A DNA stretch of 64,000 nt. Source: an uncultured Prevotellaceae bacterium (GTDB lineage: Bacteria; Bacteroidota; Bacteroidia; Bacteroidales; Bacteroidaceae). Below, piece by piece: positions 51,767-61,773 of the stretch; the stretch's first letter is position 1, and the number at the start of each line of letters is the position of its first letter. The position numbers were made by a program, and so were the translations under genes. The stretch covers positions 10,059 to 74,058 of the forward strand of contig CAMZAE010000002.1 in NCBI GenBank assembly GCA_947304115.1, read 5' to 3'. The notes below the pieces were generated by a model that ran no database searches, was not told where the DNA came from, and saw nothing but the letters and a program-made list of their open reading frames with translations.

Positions 51767-53161
51767 TTATCTCCACCCTTCCAAGTCGGCTTCGGGAAAG
51801 AGGTCTGGGTTGAAGCGAGGCTCTTTCGTTCCCTTGCGACGTTGCTCCTTGAAGTCCTTCAAGAGGCGGAAGGCGTAGCGGCTCAACATTAGAACTGCAA
51901 TGAGGTTGAGGATGGTCATGAGCGCCATAGCGAGGTCAACGATGCTCCAGGCTTGCTGAAGCGTCATAAAGCCTCCCATGAGCACTACCACGCCGCTTAG
52001 CAGGCGGAACACTGTTATTGCCCAGGGCTTCCTCGTGATATAGCGGACGTTAGTCTCGCCATAGAAGTAGTTGGCGATGATGGTGCTATAGGCAAAGAGG
52101 AAGATGGCAGCCATCAGGAACCACCCGCCGAAACTGCCTAAGTGGTGCTCCATCGCATGACCTGTAAGGATAATGCCGTCGTAGTCGTTGGTATAAAGAC
52201 CGCTCAGCAGGATGATGAAAGCCGTGCAGGTACAGATGACAAGCGTGTCGGTAAAGACGCCCAGACTTTGCAACAAACCCTGTTGGACGGGATGCGGTAT
52301 GGTGGCCGTCGCAGCAGCATTGGGAGCACTTCCCTCGCCTGCCTCATTCGAGAAGAGGCCTCGCTTCACGCCTTGCATGATGGCAATGCCGACGGCTCCG
52401 CCTGCTGCCTGCTCCCATCCGAAAGCACTTCGCACGATAAGGCTCAGCATGGCGGGAATCTCCGTAACGTTGACAATCATAATGTAGAGTGCCAAAAGGA
52501 TATACCCTAAAGCCATGAAGGGCACGACCATAGCGCAGAAGCGGGCGATGCGCTGTATGCCGCCAAAGATGATAACGAGTGTCATTAAAGCCAGAGCTAT
52601 GGCAACGTATGATGTCGGCACCTTGAACGTCTCGCCGATGGCATCGCAAAGGGTGTTGCTCTGTACAATCTGGTTGGCAAGTCCGAAGCCGTAGATGATG
52701 AAGATGGCGAAGAGGACGCCCATCCAGGGACGCTTCAGGCCGTACTTCATGTAGTAGGCTGGCCCGCCGTAGAAGCTCTCCTTCCCGTGCCGCTTGAAGA
52801 GCTGTGCCAGCGTTGCTTCCATGAAGGCCGTGGCTGCCCCAAGCAGTGCCATCACCCACATCCAAAAGACCGCTCCAGGGCCGCCCACGAAGATAGCACT
52901 CGCCACACCAGCCAAGTTGCCCGTCCCTACTCTCGACGAGAGACTAATGGCAAAAGCCTGGAAGGAGGAAATCTTCTTTTTCCCAATGCTTTCGAAGCCG
53001 TCCTTGCTCGGCTTGAAGAGGTTGCGGAGCATAAGTGGCAGCATCGTGAACTGCACCGCCTTGAGGTTCCAAGTAAAGTAAAGCGCACACCCCACCAGCA
53101 TCGTAATGACCACGTATGTCCAAAGCCAATCGTTTATCGTATTGAAGAATTCAAAGCCCAT
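51767..53161 (-). CDS. Alanine/glycine:cation symporter (AGCS family)
   Basis: A 464-aa polytopic membrane protein with the AGCS signature ..VGGPGAVFWMWV.. and ..SNEAGEGSAP... Confidence 0.85.
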   Translation of the reverse strand: MGFEFFNTINDWLWTYVVITMLVGCALYFTWNLKAVQFTMLPLMLRNLFKPSKDGFESIGKKKISSFQAFAISLSSRVGTGNLAGVASAIFVGGPGAVFWMWVMALLGAATAFMEATLAQLFKRHGKESFYGGPAYYMKYGLKRPWMGVLFAIFIIYGFGLANQIVQSNTLCDAIGETFKVPTSYVAIALALMTLVIIFGGIQRIARFCAMVVPFMALGYILLALYIMIVNVTEIPAMLSLIVRSAFGWEQAAGGAVGIAIMQGVKRGLFSNEAGEGSAPNAAATATIPHPVQQGLLQSLGVFTDTLVICTCTAFIILLSGLYTNDYDGIILTGHAMEHHLGSFGGWFLMAAIFLFAYSTIIANYFYGETNVRYITRKPWAITVFRLLSGVVVLMGGFMTLQQAWSIVDLAMALMTILNLIAVLMLSRYAFRLLKDFKEQRRKGTKEPRFNPDLFPEADLEGWR

Positions 53162-53373
53162 AAATTCTATAACTATAATGCTGTTATAAGGTATTCCCTC
53201 GGTACTTAAAGGACTGCCTGTAGTATTGCTGTTTCCTTTGCATTCTTTTTCACAATATGTTGTGATTTAGACACAAAGTTAAGGAAAAGAATTATAAAGG
53301 CAAAGGAAATTCACAATAAATTGCGAATTCGGGTAGTAGAGCGAGCGTGATGATTGGTTTGCTCCTTTATCGA

Positions 53374-53970
53374 TTATCGAATTTTGATGCCCAGGACATA
53401 AAAATGAGGTATGTATTTGATGATGTCTGATGAAAGGTCGGACTTGATAATTTTATCACCGCAGAAACGAAAAACCCCGCTGTCAGCATCGTACCAGTAA
53501 GAGCCGAACAAGACGAGTGGCATGAATTTCCCCGTATCTGAGGTGGAAACAAGTTCAATGGGACGCGATTGATATAAATGCCGCTGTATCCTTGGTTCTC
53601 CTGGAGCAAAAACGGGCTTGAGTATTAGCTTGCCTGTAAAGCCTTCATCATTGTCGGATTGGAAGGAATAGACATATAATGAGTCATTGTCTGAGGGAGC
53701 CAATCCGATGACAAGTTTTTCTCCGACTGGGAAAGAAACATCAAAGTCAAGATAATTTCCCACCTCTTTTCCGTCAACATATTCCATGACAACAGTCTCA
53801 AGCTGCTTCCCTTTGAAATCCTTTGTGTCAAAACTATAGGCCATATAGCCTTTAGCATTAAGCAAAGGAATATAATCATTGAATGTTGCCTCTAATGTTT
53901 TCAAATTCTGTCCCTGCCCTGTCACTACGAAGATGGTGAGGAGAATTGTGATGATGGTTTGCTTGTTCAT
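53374..53970 (-). CDS. Hypothetical secreted protein
   Basis: It has a signal peptide (MNKQTIITILLTIFVVTGQGQ) and is 198 aa and AT-rich. I recognise no motif. Confidence 0.5.
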   Translation of the reverse strand: MNKQTIITILLTIFVVTGQGQNLKTLEATFNDYIPLLNAKGYMAYSFDTKDFKGKQLETVVMEYVDGKEVGNYLDFDVSFPVGEKLVIGLAPSDNDSLYVYSFQSDNDEGFTGKLILKPVFAPGEPRIQRHLYQSRPIELVSTSDTGKFMPLVLFGSYWYDADSGVFRFCGDKIIKSDLSSDIIKYIPHFYVLGIKIR

Positions 53971-54348
53971 TATTCCTTTACTTTTCTTATATAACGAATC
54001 TGGATGGTTTTTTATGACATTGAGGCAGAATAATTAAGGCTTATTCACAGAAGTTACTCCCGCGTCTCGCGACGCAGGAGCCGGGTGGCGTCAATTTATT
54101 AACTTTAAAAACCCAATCGGGATGATTATTCTTTGTCCTTCTTCGGTTCCATACCTTTCAGATACACCTTCTCACCGTTGATGTAGCTATCTCTTGTTTT
54201 TCTTTCTGATATGAAAACGAATCAACCGCCCCCAAATTGTATAAAGCCTTCACTTTTCCTGACATTTTGCTACAAAGATACCACTCTTTGCCGGTAATGA
54301 CAAGTTCACGACAAATTTTCTGTCCTTACCTGGTTAGCGGTGATGATG

Positions 54349-54561
54349 TCAACGACATTCCATTGGTACGAGTTTCAGGATAACGATTTGTGTGTCTGTG
54401 CCATAGCGTCTTGGCTTGTCACCAACAAGTTGTCTGACTCTTGCCAAGGCTTCTGTTTCACTTGCGCTATGCAGGCTTATCAATGCTGCCGATGTGTAAA
54501 CCAAAGTACATAATCTTCCTGCCATAAAGCCATATTCTACACGATACATTCTTACACCCAT
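54349..54561 (-). CDS. Small hypothetical protein (66-70 aa), third gene of the sigma/mini-DnaE cassette
   Basis: The ORF starts 13 nt downstream of the mini-DnaE stop. An alternative start is at 54549 (MYRVEYGF..). No motif is recognised. Confidence 0.35.
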   Translation of the reverse strand: MGVRMYRVEYGFMAGRLCTLVYTSAALISLHSASETEALARVRQLVGDKPRRYGTDTQIVILKLVPMECR

Positions 54562-54574
54562 AATTTTTTTTTGG

Positions 54575-55471
54575 TTATTTTATTTCGAATTTATACTTCT
54601 CTATTACCCGACTGACGGCATGGGCTTTCAGGAAAGCGCGAGGATTGCTGGTGAGGCGTTGCCAAGCTGTCTCGGCCTCTTCTATAGTAATATCATTTAG
54701 GTCTGCAAAGACTTCCTTTTTGTAAGTTTCCACTTGCTCCTTTTCTCCCCGCTGGATGGCGATACGAATTTGGTTGGCCTTGATGCTGCCTGCATGAAAG
54801 GTCTCGCGGAGGAGGTCCATTATCTGCTCCTGATAAATCAAGCGGCCGAAAGTGGAAGGCTCTTGGATATAAGCTTCGTACAAATCCATTGTCTGAGGGA
54901 AGTAGAGGGCATAGCGGGCCAACTCATCATCGAGGTTTTCTGGCAAAGGCCTCTTATGCTTGTTGCTTAGATACGTCGAAGGACACAAGTCCTGGAACAG
55001 GCATTCTCTGATGGCTGCGATGTCATAATCTCCGGCGTTGGCTTGCAGCAAAGCCTCTGCTTCTTCCTTGAACTCGTCAAAACGCGAAGCTTCGATGTCG
55101 AACTGGAATTTAGGCAGGCCGTCGTTGACAAAGCGGGCAGAGTGAAGACCGTATTTCATAGGATCAACCTCCGTAAGCCCCAGACAATAACAGACAATAG
55201 AGGAAGGCATTGCGCCCCTTGCCCAAACATTTATCTCTGCCGACATTGCATACTTCCTAAAAATCCAAAAGGCCATGATGTAGTAATCGACAAAGCCTGC
55301 GTTGATAATTTGCTTCATTTCCCATAGCATTTTCACGGGTATCATACTGCAAAGTGTTACAGATGGCTTAATCTTTACGCTCTTGAGATTATCGCCATAA
55401 CGCTTTTTCATGCCAGTCGATACAAGCTTTTGAAGTAATTCTGCGTGTGTCATTTTCATTTTCTTATTCAT
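54575..55471 (-). CDS. Pol III alpha (DnaE)-derived 298-aa protein lacking the PHP domain, most of the palm/thumb, and the beta-binding and OB domains
   Basis: The start at 55471 ([13 protein letters not shown]) overlaps the sigma-like stop by 8 nt. The segments [68 protein letters not shown] and FLKAHAVS parallel conserved DnaE palm-entry and finger motifs. This alignment is from memory. Confidence 0.6.
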
Positions 55472-55862
55472 GTTTCTGCTCCTTAAAGATACTGCGACAA
55501 TAAATTTGTTGAACTCTCTTTTCTGTGATTTCCCATTCTTTAGCGATGTCTGCCAAAGGACGACCTTCATCGATACCCTTCCGGATGCTGCGTTCACGTT
55601 CCGAGAGTGTGCTTTGTCCGCCTGAAGAATAATTGACCAAGGCCTGTAGGATGCTTTGCCTTACCCACCATACGGCATAGCTCATAAAGGTACAGCCCTT
55701 GTCTTGGTCGAACCTTTCTGCTGCCACCTCAAGCCCTTTGTTCCCCTCTTCGATAAGTTGTTCCAGCGTGAGACCTTGGTTCAAATACTGCTTCGCCACA
55801 GCCTCAACATAACGGCGGTTCTCTGTGACTAACTCTTCTGTGTTCATTTTCTTGTTCATCAT
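55464..55862 (-). CDS. Minimal sigma-70-family protein (region 2 plus a region-4-like HTH, 132 aa)
   Basis: [38 protein letters not shown] matches sigma-70 regions 2.1-2.4. [23 protein letters not shown] is a region-4.2-like HTH. Confidence 0.7.
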
Positions 55863-55924
55863 AACAGTTTTTAGTTAAGAGGAATGTCCCTCCATATTAT
55901 ATATATCTTTATACGATGAAATAA

Positions 55925-55967
55925 ACGAAAAAACGGCGTTTTTGCCACATAATGTGCAAAAACGCCG
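55925..55967 (-). terminator. Rho-independent terminator of the WYL/PD-(D/E)xK operon
   Basis: The 12-bp stem CGGCGTTTTTGC / GCAAAAACGCCG has a 10-nt loop. On the - strand it is followed by TTTTTTCG. Confidence 0.7.
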
Positions 55968-56001
55968 CAGAAAGAGGGCAGATTTTTAAATATAATGACA
56001 C

Positions 56002-56838
56002 TTATTCCGCGAAGTTCATATATCGTTCCATGAGATAGTCCTTTAAATCTTTAGGCATTTGTTCTTTCATTATCTCCCAAAGATTGCTATATGATTCCCA
56101 TTCGGGAACTACTTTTAATCCCACATTTTTAATATTATCTCTGAAATTTTCAAATAGTTTTTTATAATTAGCATATGCCTTATGCTCATCTTCGAAACGC
56201 TTGGAAGGTTCAAATATGAGTGTGATAAACTTCAATTCTACCTTCCCGAAATCAATAATACCAACATTTTTAAAGGTATCGCACAGTTCAACAAATTGGC
56301 TATGAATTCCCAAAAGGTGGGTAATTAGTTGTTTAACCCCTTCTTTATATTTATATTCTCTTTCTGGAATATACCCCACAATCTTTTCCCATTTAACATC
56401 TTTGTTACACCATTTATTTTCTTCTCTATAACTATTACCTAGTTCAAACTTTTTTGTTTCCGTATATTCAGTAAATTTAGACTCAATGAATAAGAGATGC
56501 TTCTTATCTTTATCTATTAGTACAACATCCATATTGGCAGGGGCAGGACTATCCTTAATTGTTTTCATCTTGACCTCGAAAAACACTTGAGTATATTTGA
56601 CTTGTTCCCATTCAAAAGGATGTTCGTCATCTATCCAATGAAAAAAATTATACGATAGCATTGATGAAGAATGAACCGCCTCAGCTTTGGAATGCAGTTC
56701 TCCACCCGAACCTTCATCAAACATATCTTGAAAATGTTCACTCATTTGACCTCCATAGATATTCTCTCTATACGAACAAAAATATCCTCTCTTATTAACA
56801 GGAAGGCCTTTCTTTAAAGCGTCTAAAAGATTTTCCAC
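56002..56838 (-). CDS. Predicted PD-(D/E)xK-fold nuclease-like protein (hypothetical, 278 aa)
   Basis: The motif MDVVLIDKDKKHLLFIESKFTE fits D-x(n)-E-x-K. The upstream motif HSSSMLSYNFF recalls restriction-endonuclease-like families. The gene is very AT-rich. Its GTG start is 2 nt after the WYL stop. Confidence 0.5.
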   Translation of the reverse strand: MENLLDALKKGLPVNKRGYFCSYRENIYGGQMSEHFQDMFDEGSGGELHSKAEAVHSSSMLSYNFFHWIDDEHPFEWEQVKYTQVFFEVKMKTIKDSPAPANMDVVLIDKDKKHLLFIESKFTEYTETKKFELGNSYREENKWCNKDVKWEKIVGYIPEREYKYKEGVKQLITHLLGIHSQFVELCDTFKNVGIIDFGKVELKFITLIFEPSKRFEDEHKAYANYKKLFENFRDNIKNVGLKVVPEWESYSNLWEIMKEQMPKDLKDYLMERYMNFAE

Positions 56839-56840
56839 AA

Positions 56841-57746
56841 TTAATAAATGTTACACATATTGTTAATTCTTTTCTTCATTTCCTCTCTCAACTCCTGTGG
56901 CTCTATCACCTCAACCTTTTCTCCCATTGCCAGCAGTTGGCTTACCAGTTCGGGTGTTATACATAATCTATAAGTGAACTCGGCAAACTCGCCGTGTTTG
57001 GAGCGGACTTCTGATTGGCTTTTGTGGAGCGGAGTAGAGCGAAGATAATCTGCCTGTATGCCGTAAGCACGGATTTTGACTTTCGTGACAGGCAAATCTT
57101 TATTCACATAAATGCCAACAACATTCGCAAAATGTTTCCTCGCATCGAAATCCTCGGGCATTTCAAAGCTGGTCGAAAGGACTTTCAAGTCAAGAATACG
57201 GTCGAGGGCGATGGTACGCAAAGCATTCTTTTCCTTTATATACCCAAGCAGATACCATCGACGATTGAAAACCTTCAAGGCGTATGGCTGGATATGAAAC
57301 TCCTGCAAATGCTCCTCTTGCTCATCTTCATAACGCTGGTAGTCAACTTGCAGCTCAACATTCTTCTGCATCGCTTCAATGATAGGATTCAGGAATGTAG
57401 TCCCAAGGGGAATCTCTTCCTGCAAAACACTGTCCTTCATACTATTGAAGGTTATAAAGTCCTGAGGAATGCTGTATTTCTGAAGCAACCACTTTCCCAA
57501 CTTCTGCTCGTCAAGGACTTCAGGGTTCTTGACATAATAGACGTTACCTTTCGACCTGTTACATTCTATATCCACTCCAAACATCTCTTTGATGCCATCT
57601 CTCCACTCATGAAAGGTCCGAATCGACAATCCTCCTTCGTGCATGGGATTATCTTTCCAGCGTTTTTCTATTTGCCAAAAGCTCAACTCCTCCCGAAGCA
57701 ACGTGTTCAGGAGCCAAATATATTTAATGTATGTCTTGCTTACCAT
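56841..57746 (-). CDS. WYL domain-containing transcriptional regulator
   Basis: It has an N-terminal wHTH, the central motif FNRRWYLLGY (WYL) and a C-terminal WCX-like region, and is 301 aa. Confidence 0.8.
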   Translation of the reverse strand: MVSKTYIKYIWLLNTLLREELSFWQIEKRWKDNPMHEGGLSIRTFHEWRDGIKEMFGVDIECNRSKGNVYYVKNPEVLDEQKLGKWLLQKYSIPQDFITFNSMKDSVLQEEIPLGTTFLNPIIEAMQKNVELQVDYQRYEDEQEEHLQEFHIQPYALKVFNRRWYLLGYIKEKNALRTIALDRILDLKVLSTSFEMPEDFDARKHFANVVGIYVNKDLPVTKVKIRAYGIQADYLRSTPLHKSQSEVRSKHGEFAEFTYRLCITPELVSQLLAMGEKVEVIEPQELREEMKKRINNMCNIY

Positions 57747-57767
57747 GCAAAAACAAGGTTTGGACAG

Positions 57768-58802
57768 CTAAACATTCGACAGGACGACGGCTTCTTTCTC
57801 TTTTTGTTGAAGGAGGAAGAGTTCTTTCTGTTGCTCTATCTCGCGGCGCAATTCCTCCTCTGTGGGCAGGTAGGGCATATACTTGGCAGCGAAGAGTTGT
57901 TGGCTGTCGTTGAGTATGGAATACTTGGCGATGGCCTTGCTCGTTTCCGAGCACAACACGATGCCGATGGTGGGATTGTCGCCATCGGTTCGTTTCAGTT
58001 CATCATACATGCGCACATACATATCCATTTGTCCCACGTCTTGATGAGTTATTGTACCCACTTTGAGGTCAATAAGTACATAACATTTCAGTATTACGTT
58101 GTAGAACACAAGGTCAATGAAATAGTCTTGCGTGTCTGTGCGTATGAGTTGCTGGCGTGCCATGAAAGCGAAGCCTCGTCCCAACTCCATGATGAAATCT
58201 TGCAGATGGCTAATGATGGCGGTTTCGAGTTCTTGTTCAGAGAAACTGCTGTCTTGCTTGAACCCCAAGAACTCGGCAACGATGGGACTCTTGAGCATTT
58301 CAAGTTTGTTGGGATGTTCCTCTTTCATAGGCAGCTGTGGCTGTCGGAAATGTCGCTCGAAGTATTGTGTGCCGATGTTGCGATTCAATGTGCGCACACT
58401 CCACATTTCCTGCGAAGATGTCTCAAGATACCAGCGTATGGCAACATCGGTGTCTGCTCTCAAACAATAGAAAATATGTGTCCATGTGAGATTCGGAAAT
58501 CGTGATTTCCAAATTCCAAAATCCGGGAGTATGAGATAGAATTTACGGAAGGAACGAAGATAACGTGCAGAGAACCCTTTTCCATATCTTATTGTTAATT
58601 CCTTTGACAATCCTTCCAATATGTGTTCTCCATACTTGGCTCTTTCTTTCCCTCGCTGTTCTTCCTCCACTATTCTTTTGCCGATGTTCCAGTATGTCTC
58701 AATCATGGTGGCATTGACAGAGGAATATGCTTTTGTCCGTCCAGTTTCAATGATAGAGCATACGTCGGAGAAGAGACTGCTATTGGTTATTTGTTGTATC
58801 AT
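57768..58802 (-). CDS. YhcG / DUF1016 PDDEXK nuclease domain protein
   Basis: It has a DUF1016-type N-terminus (..ETYWNIGKRIVEEEQ..) and a C-terminal nuclease core (YFIDLVFYN..YVLIDLKVG). Confidence 0.85.
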   Translation of the reverse strand: MIQQITNSSLFSDVCSIIETGRTKAYSSVNATMIETYWNIGKRIVEEEQRGKERAKYGEHILEGLSKELTIRYGKGFSARYLRSFRKFYLILPDFGIWKSRFPNLTWTHIFYCLRADTDVAIRWYLETSSQEMWSVRTLNRNIGTQYFERHFRQPQLPMKEEHPNKLEMLKSPIVAEFLGFKQDSSFSEQELETAIISHLQDFIMELGRGFAFMARQQLIRTDTQDYFIDLVFYNVILKCYVLIDLKVGTITHQDVGQMDMYVRMYDELKRTDGDNPTIGIVLCSETSKAIAKYSILNDSQQLFAAKYMPYLPTEEELRREIEQQKELFLLQQKEKEAVVLSNV

Positions 58803-58812
58803 ATTCGTTGGC

Positions 58813-61773
58813 TTATATTTTTTCGCTTTTCATTTCCAAAAGGACGACTGCTTCTTTCTTGCAGCCATCGACTTTGATAGTGAGAGGCTGGGGCAGGCGG
58901 ACGTGGCGGACGTGGGCGGTTTCCTGGACGGCGGGGAGGTTGTCGAGGATGTCCTGACGATAGATGCCGTCGCCCCGGAAGGCGTTGATGGTGAGGTAGC
59001 AGACACCAAGCGAGGTGAGGTTCTGGAAGAAGTGGGTGCCTTGAGAGGGGTCAACTTGGAAGCTGTCAAGCCCTGCCTCGACGATGACTTGGGCGGCGCT
59101 GATTTGTGACCACTTCACGGGGATGCCAAGCCAAGGGTCGGAACTTCCCCAACGGCCAGGGCCGATGAGGAGGAAAGAGGGGGAGGAGGGGTCGAGGAAT
59201 GTTCTGTTTATCTTTTCAATTTCCTCTGCGATGGCGGGGTTGTTAGCTGGGGTGTAGCCGTCGGTCTTGACATAGACGATGTCCTGGATGTCGGTGTAGA
59301 TGCCGTGACCGATGGCTGAATGTGAGCGCAGGAGGCAGTCGTCGTCGGGAACCAAAGTGAGGTCTTCGTCGAGTTCCATGCGGTTATCCACCATCGGGCG
59401 AATCTGCAAGAGGCAGAACTCGCCTGTGCGGTCGGCGTGCAGGTTGACGGCGAACTCTATCTCAACAGGGCGTTTCATTTCGTCCTGGCCGTATTTCAAG
59501 ACCTTCTGCATCAGTTCGGGCAGAGGAAAGACGTCGCTCTGAAGGACACCAGCAAAGGAAATAATCTTGCGGTTCCTTCCTTCGTAGAAGCCATCGTAGA
59601 TGCACTGGTCAACAGGGTCGTAGGTGGAACAAATCCATTGCAGTGTGCCGTCCTTTTCTGCCTCGCGTACAGGCACTTTTATGAGGTTGAAGCCATCGTT
59701 GACGCTCATTTCTCCTGCCTCCTTCGAGCTTTCGGCACGAAGGGCGAGGAAGTGCGTCTGGGTGTCGCGAAGGGCAATCTCCATCTCGCTCATCTGCAGG
59801 ACTTGATGCGGGTGTGCAGGGCAGACGCGAAGGCTCGTACCGCCATCGACGATGTACTTTCCGAGGCCCATTGCTAGCGAGACGGTTCCCTCTTCTGCCT
59901 TCTCGTCGCCGATTGGATAGTAGTTGATGCTTCGCGCCACACCGCTGATGACGGGGTAGAAGCGGCCGCCATGTTCCTCGCCTACTACCTCTTGCAGGAT
60001 GACAGCCATCTTCTCCTGGTCGATGACGTTGCTCGTGGCTGTCATGTAATCCTTGCTGTTCCGATAGAAGACGCTGGCATACACGGCTTTGATGGATTCT
60101 GAGAGCATGGAGAGACGCTCGTAGCGGTCTTGTGCGGCAGGTATCATATAGGTACTATAGACACCAGCGAAGGGCTGGTAGTGCGAGTCCTCGAGCAGAC
60201 TTGAAGAACGTATGGCGATAGGTCCACTCACGACATCAAGGAAGGCTTCTATGTCGCCCACAAGACGCATGGGGAGCCGTGCGCGGAGGAAGTGCTGCAG
60301 GATTTCCTCGTCGGGGATGTCGCTGAGGGCCAACTGATAGAGGTCGTTGGTGTCCATGAACTCGTCGAAGATATCGGTACAGAGCACGACGGTTTTCGGA
60401 ATGCAGACAGTGACGCCCTCCCGCTCGTTGAGGTCTGTGTGACGGCCAAGAAGGTGGTCGATGAAGGCAAGGCCACGCCCTTTTCCTCCAAGGCTGCCTT
60501 CGCCGATACGGGCAAAGTTGCTGTACTGGTCGAAGCGTTCCCTCTGGAAAACAGCCACCACGCCTTGGTTCTTCATCCTTCGGTAGGCGACGATGGCATC
60601 GAGGATGATGGCTCTGTGAGCGTCCACGTCCTGAAGGCTTTCCCATGTGATGCCCTTCAGGAACTCCGAAATGGGGAAGAGGGCGCGGCTGGCGAGCCAG
60701 CGGCTCACATAGTTGTGCGAGATATGGTATTGCAGGCTTCGCGTGGGCAAGGTCATAATGTTGTTCTGCAAGTCCTTGAGGTTGTGCAGCCGAGCCACCT
60801 CCTCCTTCGTGTCGGGGTCTCGGAAGATGAAGTCGCCAAAGCCGAAGTAGTCGCGCAGGTGGTCGCGCAGGTCAACGTCTATCTTCTTGGAGTTCTTGTC
60901 GATGAAGCTGGCATGACATTCCTTTGCAAGCTTGGCATTGTCTGTCTCGCTCGAATCGAGGATAAGGGGAACATACGGGTCATTGGCGCGGATGGCACTG
61001 AGGAGCTTGAAGCCCGCATCTGCGACTTTCTCTCCTCCTGCAATAAGGGGGAAGCGGCAGTCGCTGATGACACCCAGGGTGTTGTCGGCAAAGCGGGTGT
61101 ACAGTTCCCATGCCTCTTCGTAGTTGCGAGCAAGGACAATCTTCGGTCGGCCGCGCATTCGCAGCATTTCAAGGCTCGTGTTGAGGGCTTCGGTGGCGAA
61201 CTCAAGGCTCTGCTGCAGCACGAACTTGTAGAGTGTGGGCAGGATGCTGGAATAGAAACGGATGCCGTCCTCCACGACGAGCAGCATCTGAACGCCAGCC
61301 GATTTGATGTCGTGCTCCAGGTTCATACGGTCCTCCATCAGCTTGATGATGGAAAGCAGCAGTTCCGTGTTGCCGAGCCAGCAGAAGACGTATTCGAAGA
61401 CACTCAGGTCTTCGTTCTGCATACGTTTCGTGATGCCGTGGCTGAAGGGAGTCAGCACCACGATGGGTATGGTGGGATAGTCCTGCTTGATGCCTCGCGC
61501 GATGTCGAACACGGAGTTGTCCTCGGCAGCAGGCATACAGATGACGAGGTTAATCCCGCCGCCCTGCATCTGCACCTCTGCCTCTTCGCGATTCGTCACC
61601 TGAATGAATCGGGGCGGGAAGCGAAGTCCGAGCTTGGCGTACTCGGAAAAGATTTTCTCGTCCACACGCCCGTCATCCTCCAGCATGAAGGCATCGTAGG
61701 GGTTTGCGACAATCAGGACGTTATACACTCGTTTGAGCATCAGGTCCACGAAGGAAGTATCTTTCAGTGTCAT
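58813..61773 (-). CDS. PEP/pyruvate-binding (PPDK N-terminal-like) domain protein with N-terminal receiver-like domains
   Basis: A 986-aa protein with two REC-like N-terminal modules followed by an ATP-grasp/PPDK_N-like region (..EGSLGGKGRGLAF..). Confidence 0.7.
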   Translation of the reverse strand: MTLKDTSFVDLMLKRVYNVLIVANPYDAFMLEDDGRVDEKIFSEYAKLGLRFPPRFIQVTNREEAEVQMQGGGINLVICMPAAEDNSVFDIARGIKQDYPTIPIVVLTPFSHGITKRMQNEDLSVFEYVFCWLGNTELLLSIIKLMEDRMNLEHDIKSAGVQMLLVVEDGIRFYSSILPTLYKFVLQQSLEFATEALNTSLEMLRMRGRPKIVLARNYEEAWELYTRFADNTLGVISDCRFPLIAGGEKVADAGFKLLSAIRANDPYVPLILDSSETDNAKLAKECHASFIDKNSKKIDVDLRDHLRDYFGFGDFIFRDPDTKEEVARLHNLKDLQNNIMTLPTRSLQYHISHNYVSRWLASRALFPISEFLKGITWESLQDVDAHRAIILDAIVAYRRMKNQGVVAVFQRERFDQYSNFARIGEGSLGGKGRGLAFIDHLLGRHTDLNEREGVTVCIPKTVVLCTDIFDEFMDTNDLYQLALSDIPDEEILQHFLRARLPMRLVGDIEAFLDVVSGPIAIRSSSLLEDSHYQPFAGVYSTYMIPAAQDRYERLSMLSESIKAVYASVFYRNSKDYMTATSNVIDQEKMAVILQEVVGEEHGGRFYPVISGVARSINYYPIGDEKAEEGTVSLAMGLGKYIVDGGTSLRVCPAHPHQVLQMSEMEIALRDTQTHFLALRAESSKEAGEMSVNDGFNLIKVPVREAEKDGTLQWICSTYDPVDQCIYDGFYEGRNRKIISFAGVLQSDVFPLPELMQKVLKYGQDEMKRPVEIEFAVNLHADRTGEFCLLQIRPMVDNRMELDEDLTLVPDDDCLLRSHSAIGHGIYTDIQDIVYVKTDGYTPANNPAIAEEIEKINRTFLDPSSPSFLLIGPGRWGSSDPWLGIPVKWSQISAAQVIVEAGLDSFQVDPSQGTHFFQNLTSLGVCYLTINAFRGDGIYRQDILDNLPAVQETAHVRHVRLPQPLTIKVDGCKKEAVVLLEMKSEKI

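Follow-up and report, generated by a model that had tools for sequence, protein, structure and literature searches.

The window analysed here is a 64,000-nt stretch of the genome of an uncultured Prevotellaceae bacterium (GenBank assembly GCA_947304115.1, contig CAMZAE010000002.1), and the locus in question is a group of three tightly packed genes on its reverse strand. ORF1 encodes a minimal sigma factor (mini-sigma), ORF2 a shortened relative of DnaE, the alpha subunit of DNA polymerase III (mini-DnaE), and ORF3 a small accessory protein. Comparison with related loci provides good support for the conclusion that ORF1 and ORF2 make up the invariable core, two proteins in all, of a larger locus of several genes found only in rumen and gut Bacteroidales. 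The positions of the three genes given in a preliminary description, which had been made from the sequence alone, were borne out (Table 1), and so were the 8-nt overlap of ORF1 and ORF2 (ATGAATAA), the 13 nt between the ORF2 stop and the ORF3 start, and the AT-richness of the region, since the island at ~53000-59000 has a GC content of 0.31-0.46 compared with 0.55-0.57 in most flanking intervals. The 5' ends of ORF1 and ORF2 (55843..55859 and 55455..55471) are nearly identical over 17 nt, reading ATGAA(C/T)AAGAAAATGAA, and the two proteins share the N-terminus MNKKM.

Table 1. Features of the mini-sigma/mini-DnaE locus and its immediate neighbours (window coordinates).
Feature	Position	Strand	Size	Matches and remarks
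ORF1, mini-sigma	55464..55862	-	132 aa	
ORF2, mini-DnaE	54575..55471	-	298 aa	
ORF3, accessory protein	54349..54561	-	70 aa	
Conserved non-coding element E	55881..55975	-		Between REase-ARP gene and ORF1
Element E, hairpin arms	55970..55956 and 55945..55934	-	13 bp	
Element E, T-run	55933..55928	-		
Element E, AT box	55916..~55894	-		TCGTATAA/TATAAT-like
Element E, GGAGGGACATTCC box	55893..55881	-		ORF1 ATG 18 nt further on
WYL-WCX regulator	56841..57746	-	301 aa	First gene of conserved locus; Pfam WYL 1.3e-13, WCX 1e-10; PADLOC WYL 2e-32
PD-(D/E)xK nuclease, REase-ARP family	56002..56838	-	278 aa	Pfam PF22558 7.7e-9
YhcG/DUF1016 PD-(D/E)xK nuclease	57768..58802	-		Pfam YhcG_C 4e-53; PADLOC PDC-S02 8.7e-128
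DUF5041 protein	53374..53970	-		Signal-peptide-like N-terminus; AT-rich stretch downstream of ORF3
ORF antisense to WYL and YhcG genes	57015..58505	+	496 aa	No homologues among related loci

Both sequence and fold clearly identify ORF2 as homologous to the Pol III alpha subunit, of which it comprises the N-terminal part of the palm and part of the fingers. Its residues 12-128 match positions 2-110 of 260 in the Pfam DNA_pol3_alpha profile (E=2.7e-16) and residues 206-257 match positions 110-161 of 166 in the finger-domain profile (E=9e-6), the latter match extending to positions 51-166 in other members of the family. A profile of the mini-DnaE family aligns with residues 340-432 and 644-790 of Mycobacterium tuberculosis DnaE1 (7.9e-15 for the PDB profile), and the two pieces of ORF2 are arranged as they are in DnaE. 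Compared with the ~1,000-1,200 aa of DnaE and PolC, however, ORF2 is reduced to 298 aa by loss of the PHP domain, the thumb, the second half of the palm, the beta-binding region and the OB/tau-binding C-terminus, and it has also lost the catalytic aspartates. An AlphaFold2 model computed from 18 sequences was unusable (pLDDT 60.8) and was rebuilt from 119 sequences (pLDDT 76.7, pTM 0.67). The significant PDB matches of the rebuilt model in Foldseek were exclusively C-family polymerases (DnaE/PolC), with E<=0.001 for the top 10, a probability of 1.00 for the top 15 and a TMq of ~0.55. All named significant matches in a BFVD fold search were likewise annotated as DnaE/Pol III alpha or as DNA-directed DNA polymerases, and the mini form was absent from the BFVD targets. 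The assignment of ORF2 to the palm entry and fingers of DnaE, made in the preliminary description from sequence motifs, is therefore upheld by the profile matches and by a structure search whose significant matches were all of this polymerase family.

The catalytic carboxylates of the Pol III alpha palm are D401, D403 and D555 in Escherichia coli. Opposite the PDIDID motif of DnaE1, ORF2 reads PKFQFD, such that both aligned catalytic aspartates are replaced, by K and Q, and the third lies in the segment that is deleted from ORF2. The degeneration of the PDxDxD motif that had been noted from the sequence thus proved correct and extends to the family, as K121 and Q123, which occupy the catalytic positions, are nearly invariant in 119 sequences. 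We regard ORF2 as a predicted pseudo-enzyme in which no polymerase activity should be possible. The same 119 homologues show little or no variation at R85, G86, S90, S91, Y213, Q214, E215, R236, R241, K282 and H284, or in the LGLTEVDP motif and RFVN. The conserved motifs of ORF2 are RG..SS, LGLTxxDP, YQEQ, IRxxIQRG and FLKAHA, and in Pol III alpha these surround the incoming nucleotide and the primer end.

A word-indexed search returned 496 homologues of ORF2, the best 120 of which are 63-100% identical to it and are either ~280-300 aa or ~405 aa in length. The ~405-aa forms end in WG repeats (PF14903; for example, P0052 and P0036), the mini-DnaE proteins of loci L005, L026, L031 and L130 reach 501-547 aa, and some C-terminal extensions of ~200 aa have no family match. 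Since these extensions vary, mini-DnaE may serve as a scaffold to which sensor or effector domains are added. When 1.84 billion representatives were searched exhaustively with the profile, mini-DnaE formed only ~16-21 clusters at 50% identity, separated by a score gap from the true DnaE proteins (<=96 bits). In rumen and gut metagenomes the locus now goes under the label 'hypothetical' or, wrongly, 'DNA polymerase III alpha subunit'.

ORF1 had been described as a sigma-70 region 2 joined almost directly to a region-4-like helix-turn-helix, and the first part of this assignment is the stronger: the protein matches Pfam Sigma70_r2 with an E value of 3e-14 (52.9 bits, cut-off 24) and Sigma70_r4 with 19 bits, below the cut-off of 24.1. 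In alignments to SigA structures, residues 9-79 correspond to region 2 (E=1.6e-22), and a weak alignment with region 4, which starts at ~80-84, covers residues ~80-127. Regions 1.1, 1.2 and 3 are absent, and between regions 2 and 4 some ~97 SigA residues (region 3 and the 3.2 linker) are gone, leaving a joint of only ~5-8 residues. The layout of region 2 plus region 4 is similar to that of the extracytoplasmic function (ECF) sigma factors, but region 2 itself is closest to that of the primary sigma-70 factors, with the RpoD, RpoS and SigA models (group 1/2, not ECF) as the best NCBIfam matches. Unlike these primary factors, ORF1 lacks regions 1.2 and 3 and has almost no linker between regions 2 and 4. 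It also passes TIGR02937, a model labelled sigma70-ECF that is of superfamily type (61.5 bits, cut-off 42.9). Judged by its sequence, ORF1 is a member of the sigma-70 superfamily on account of region 2, but can be classed neither with the standard primary sigmas nor with the ECF sigmas.

Region 2 of ORF1 is intact and includes the core-binding motif LIEEGNKGL (LIEEGNxGL) and the melting motif YAVWWVRQ. In holoenzyme structures, sigma regions 2 and 4 lie tens of angstroms apart, and region 2 contacts the beta' clamp helices of RNA polymerase and the melted -10 element. With a linker of only ~5-8 residues, canonical docking of both regions would be excluded, and because region 2 is kept the mini-sigma should be able to dock on core RNA polymerase. 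Its 305 homologues include size classes of ~89-102 aa (region 2 only) and ~125-147 aa, and the wider set of relatives extends from these region-2-only forms (89-102 aa) up to complete RpoD-like paralogues. No anti-sigma family was matched among the locus neighbours in Pfam.

Pairwise dN/dS values are 0.06-0.3 for mini-sigma, 0.09-0.24 for mini-DnaE (in pairs with unsaturated dS) and 0.09-0.3 for ORF3, with one ORF3 pair at 0.48. The heavy truncation of both core proteins relative to their parents would fit functionless, decaying remnants of duplicated dnaE and rpoD, and a decaying dnaE fragment was an alternative considered in the preliminary description. We find it scarcely credible, as it is contradicted by purifying selection on all three genes (dN/dS 0.06-0.3), by hundreds of intact homologues with the same boundaries, by the invariant motifs, by the conserved gene order and overlap, and by the occurrence of gene fusions. 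Hence, ORF1-3 are not decaying fragments.

Related loci were drawn from GTDB species genomes (27 loci, all in metagenome-assembled genomes (MAGs) of rumen or gut Bacteroidales labelled Prevotellaceae, Bacteroidaceae or Prevotella), from contigs reached through homologues, from 72 metagenome loci reached through element E, and from the window itself. Their common gene order is WYL-WCX regulator, nuclease slot, element E, mini-sigma with a DnaE-derived protein, and a variable cargo, examples of which are ORF3, DnaB C-terminal and GyrA fragments, a metallo-beta-lactamase (MBL) nuclease and an AAA+ ATPase. A sigma-like gene is adjacent or fused to every testable mini-DnaE gene (49 of 49), so that the co-occurrence of the pair that the preliminary description left to be checked is a regular feature of these loci. 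Conversely, of 83 sigma-like genes, 77 are accompanied by a DnaE-derived partner, which is mini-DnaE or D4, a 166-aa second DnaE-palm-like fragment whose gene adjoins a sigma-like gene in 28 of 32 cases. Fusions are found in both orders (sigma+DnaE in P0007, DnaE+sigma in P0121), and the 8-nt overlap of ORF1 and ORF2 is kept in L002, L005, L006 and L090. At 36 of the 38 testable loci a WYL gene is found in the 7 kb that precede mini-DnaE on its upstream side, and in most related loci the regulator is 60-82% identical to the window copy. The three-gene cassette that had been taken as the unit is one configuration of this larger unit, which begins at the WYL-WCX regulator and a swappable nuclease and includes ORF3 at only 11 of 32 testable loci.

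Three variants are found downstream of element E. Variant A consists of a short sigma gene, sometimes the gene for a protein termed C4, mini-DnaE and cargo; variant B of D4, a full-length RpoD-like sigma and an IetA-like AAA+ ATPase (PADLOC 4e-27); and variant C of a 531-aa mini-DnaE-sigma fusion. The similarity of D4 to the DnaE palm is weak to moderate (Pfam 3e-3, PDB 0.13, hhalign 0.013). C4, a 150-aa protein that sometimes lies between sigma and mini-DnaE, has no family and no PDB sequence match, and shows a weak similarity to mini-DnaE (hhalign E=0.01). The ORF3 family comprises 47 clusters of 63-94 aa that are 64-94% identical, with 3 more entries of 38-52 aa, and it has no Pfam, NCBIfam, PADLOC, PHROG or PDB sequence match. 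Wherever its context is available, ORF3 is inside such an island, often, but not always, as the next gene after mini-DnaE. NCBIfam, PHROGs and PADLOC contain no model for mini-DnaE, ORF3, C4 or D4, and PADLOC v2 gave no match at E<=0.1 for mini-DnaE and ORF3 and none at E<=0.01 for C4 and D4.

The nuclease slot is hypervariable. In the window it is occupied by the REase-ARP gene, which overlaps the end of the WYL gene, and across the related loci it contains REase-ARP or unrelated ExK-motif proteins and sometimes an MBL/beta-CASP nuclease with a metallophosphoesterase that matches PADLOC PDC-S10 (8.5e-68). In L090, a close relative in which ORF2 is 87% identical, the island is at the same chromosomal site, following PPDK-like and YhcG genes, and comparison of L090:3319-8897 with 57746..54575 of the window shows that REase-ARP has given way to a 365-aa protein, an MBL/beta-CASP nuclease and a metallophosphoesterase of the PADLOC PDC-S10 family. 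Since the slot has been swapped at the same site, its turnover appears to be fast. Two islands or duplicated modules are present in L163 (two WYL genes), in L016 (two 286-aa sigma copies) and in the MAGs RGIG9995 (L008 and L014) and RUG11694 (L013 and L022), one case being inverted.

Element E is ~100 nt long and conserved in sequence. It is found in nearly every related locus (~100 loci), and its pattern identified the 72 further metagenome loci. It is always in the orientation of the genes and directly upstream of a module, which in most loci is the sigma operon, and some islands contain two copies (L001:6886/7500, L009:1862/7109, L012:466/1082, L027:6015/7027, L029:6826/9298 and others). 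The general layout is TTCTGCGGCGTTTTTGCA, a loop of 8-10 nt, GCAAAAACGCCG and a T-run, followed after ~8-14 nt by TCGTATAA with (AT)n, then GGAGGGGCATTCC, and 20-40 nt before the ATG; among the boxes of the element is GGAGGGG. The preliminary description had placed a strong insulating terminator upstream of ORF1. The hairpin and T-run are real (55970..55928) but, instead of insulating a three-gene cassette, they belong to element E at the head of the sigma operon. Across 24 distinct copies the stem is paired in 97% of cells. Many of the changes in the hairpin are one-sided and G.U-compatible, and support from covariation is weak because double changes occur in one pair only (3 cells). The stem may be an RNA hairpin or a DNA palindrome, and the element as a whole might act as a terminator-plus-promoter cassette, as a leader attenuator or as a protein operator, or it might be a module-exchange hotspot. 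A search upstream of the WYL genes for a possible operator of the WYL regulator found neither this palindrome nor any shared motif. Rfam gave no match for element E (53000-59000, E<=1), with a lone chance snoRNA hit elsewhere.

The host-type -7 box of Bacteroidetes is TAnnTTTG. This box is present in 21 of 41 distinct WYL upstream regions, which are locus-specific and have host-type -7 boxes, compared with 3 of 94 copies of element E and 7% of random windows. A TATAAT-like box is present in 83 of the 94 copies, with variants that read TATAAA, TATAAT or TATAAATA. From the contrast in TAnnTTTG frequency (21/41 versus 3/94), the WYL operon looks sigmaA-driven and the sigma/mini-DnaE operon does not.

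The locus is found at differing chromosomal sites, among toxin-antitoxin, Abi and nuclease genes. A changing position, an AT content above that of the flanks and the presence of sigma-, polymerase- and helicase-related genes would be in accord with a replication/transcription module belonging to a mobile element that has escaped recognition, for instance a phage satellite or integrative element. We consider this highly improbable, given that the polymerase is catalytically dead, that no tRNA genes are present in the window, that no meaningful direct or inverted repeats flank the island, that no integrase was found, and that capsid, conjugation and replication-initiator genes are absent from the locus maps. 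Moreover, the mini-DnaE family has no member in IMG/VR, INPHARED or PLSDB, where only distant DnaE-type polymerases were matched, and the pattern of element E does not occur in IMG/VR. The phage or integrative and conjugative element origin suggested in the preliminary description is accordingly unsupported, while its statement that no described system has this composition agrees with our searches of the literature, PADLOC, PHROGs and NCBIfam, in which no description of such a system was found. The locus is real and conserved, and the system is apparently undescribed.

The YhcG gene is directly upstream of the WYL gene within the AT-rich island. It recurs at this site in L090 and is probably a defence candidate in its own right. 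The DUF5041 gene has no counterpart in related islands and is likely to be either a flank gene or cargo of no relation to the locus, and the 496-aa antisense ORF is most likely spurious. Neighbours in related islands include Abi_2, PIN/RelB, HepT/MNT, a Schlafen-like ATPase and methyltransferases, which together with YhcG are indicative of a conflict-island setting. PADLOC matches at the islands concern accessory genes only (WYL, PDC-S02, PDC-S10 and IetA-like AAA+).

The role of a decoy, sensor or takeover module that the preliminary description suggested for the pair may be correct. Our preferred reading, which is tentative and based on sequence comparison, is that the mini-sigma and the pseudo-polymerase form a sensor-switch controlling the conflict island. 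The mini-sigma would dock on core RNA polymerase through region 2. Mini-DnaE would bind a nucleotide or DNA end in the former nucleotide/primer-end pocket without catalysis, which we propose because the pocket motifs are invariant despite the lost aspartates. The two proteins would act as one complex, as suggested by their translational coupling here and their fusion elsewhere, and this complex would link a replication-type or nucleotide-type signal to RNA polymerase and activate or hijack transcription from the element E promoters of the island itself. The predicted outcome is controlled expression of the cargo during attack by a phage or mobile element. Several considerations weigh against such a switch. 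We infer RNA polymerase binding, ligand binding by mini-DnaE and promoter activity of element E from conservation, and the counts of co-occurrence do not represent an unbiased census as the loci were ascertained through mini-DnaE or element E. Region 4 of ORF1 is under the Pfam cut-off. The hairpin and T-run could simply end the WYL-nuclease operon, and the AT box may be no promoter. Furthermore, the DnaB C-terminal, GyrA and extra DnaE-like fragments are unexplained by a switch alone.

These fragments are derived from several housekeeping proteins. Related islands encode a 233-aa DnaB C-terminal protein with a strong match (E=1e-48), a ~140-aa GyrA segment with a moderate one (Pfam 3e-7; PDB profile 5e-4 to Staphylococcus aureus GyrA 365-448) whose matches are essentially all GyrA or ParC, a 136-aa DprA-like product identified by a precomputed Pfam hit alone, and full-length RpoD-like paralogues, of which there are two copies in L016. 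Short proteins resembling pieces of essential DNA-handling proteins are located at L031:10020-10721, L025:8915-9346, L030:6576-7076, L027:6553-6966 and L165:13112-13522. A resemblance of a 137-aa product, C55, to the FtsZ C-terminal domain is at best weak: there was no Pfam or PDB hit, and pairwise BLASTP with an FtsZ sequence gave an E value of 0.006, which is a hint only.

The variety of fragments is better accounted for by the main rival of the switch, a decoy or bait array, although overall we judge such an array rather unlikely. Inactive paralogue fragments of sigmaA, DnaE, DnaB and GyrA would mimic the surfaces that phage takeover proteins attack, and a bound phage inhibitor would be titrated or would trigger the neighbouring nucleases or ATPase. 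The sharing of islands by several such fragments (DnaB_C, GyrA, D4, RpoD-like and DprA-like), the differences in module content between islands, the adjacent nucleases and the variable C-terminal additions to mini-DnaE, such as WG repeats, are all consistent with baits. However, mini-DnaE lacks all known partner-binding parts of the polymerase (PHP/epsilon site, beta motif and tau-binding C-terminus), and a single machine, rather than a set of separate baits, is suggested by the fusions and by the strictness with which sigma and DnaE are paired. In addition, no link from bait to effector is evident, and decoys would need constitutive expression, yet the operon lies behind a strong hairpin.

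An improbable further alternative is dominant-negative abortive infection, in which derepression by the WYL regulator would release fragments that poison host machines and halt both growth and phage replication, with sigma region 2 blocking the sigma site of core RNA polymerase and the DnaB-C, GyrA and DnaE fragments poisoning the replisome. The minimal conserved part of the mini-sigma is region 2 with its core-binding motif, region-2-only forms exist, the operon has no host-type promoter and is placed behind a hairpin and T-run, and a WYL regulator is upstream (36/38) among Abi and toxin-antitoxin neighbours, all of which would suit a toxic product. Poisoning, however, needs no conserved nucleotide pocket, mini-DnaE has no replisome-interaction modules, and the full-length RpoD-like paralogues of variant loci are not expected to be toxic.

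The closest functional analogy to the proposed switch may be phage T4 late transcription, with its gp55 (a region-2-only sigma), gp33 and sliding clamp gp45 and a -10-type TATAAATA box, where a minimal sigma is also coupled to a protein of the replication machinery. The comparison goes no further than analogy, as the partner here is a polymerase fragment rather than a clamp, and the locus is chromosomal rather than phage-borne. WYL-regulated defence loci are known from the BrxR-BREX and CapW-CBASS types, and these are alike in having an HTH-WYL-WCX first gene, nuclease effectors and a defence-island context. However, the effector set of the present locus matches no known system, no palindrome like that of element E is present upstream of WYL, and the sigma/pseudo-polymerase core has no counterpart there. 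ORF1 also matches the sigma-70 domain of MzaA from the MZA system (NCBIfam 1.1e-20, PADLOC 7e-17), but the match relates residues 9-77 to profile positions 432-500 of 683 and covers ~70 residues of a 683-726-aa protein, and PADLOC models of Mza components had no hit in the other six window proteins scanned. Host-target or polymerase folds without catalysis are found in ImuB-type inactive polymerase adaptors and in the integrated decoys of plant NLR proteins. These offer a conceptual parallel, in that a fold may be kept as an adaptor, sensor or bait, although they belong to other protein families and other organisms.

In a broader sense, it is conceivable, if somewhat doubtful, that these loci represent a conflict or immune strategy of Bacteroidales built from inactive, truncated paralogues of sigmaA, DnaE, DnaB and GyrA, with a mini-sigma/pseudo-polymerase core and a dedicated promoter that is not of the host type. 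With the same reservation, such a strategy might be the bacterial equivalent of integrated-decoy immunity or a transcription switch that senses replication. Element E and the gene pair are easily recognised in sequence, and the locus can therefore be annotated in rumen and gut metagenomes and the hypothesis tested directly in cultivable Prevotella or Bacteroides strains. Should the pair prove to be a functioning machine, this would be, to our knowledge, the first case of a replicative-polymerase fold reused as the non-catalytic partner of a sigma factor. Under the same condition, it would represent a new logic for conflict systems, in which the state of replication or of nucleotides is sensed and fed straight to RNA polymerase, or, alternatively, one in which phage takeover factors are baited with copies of their targets.

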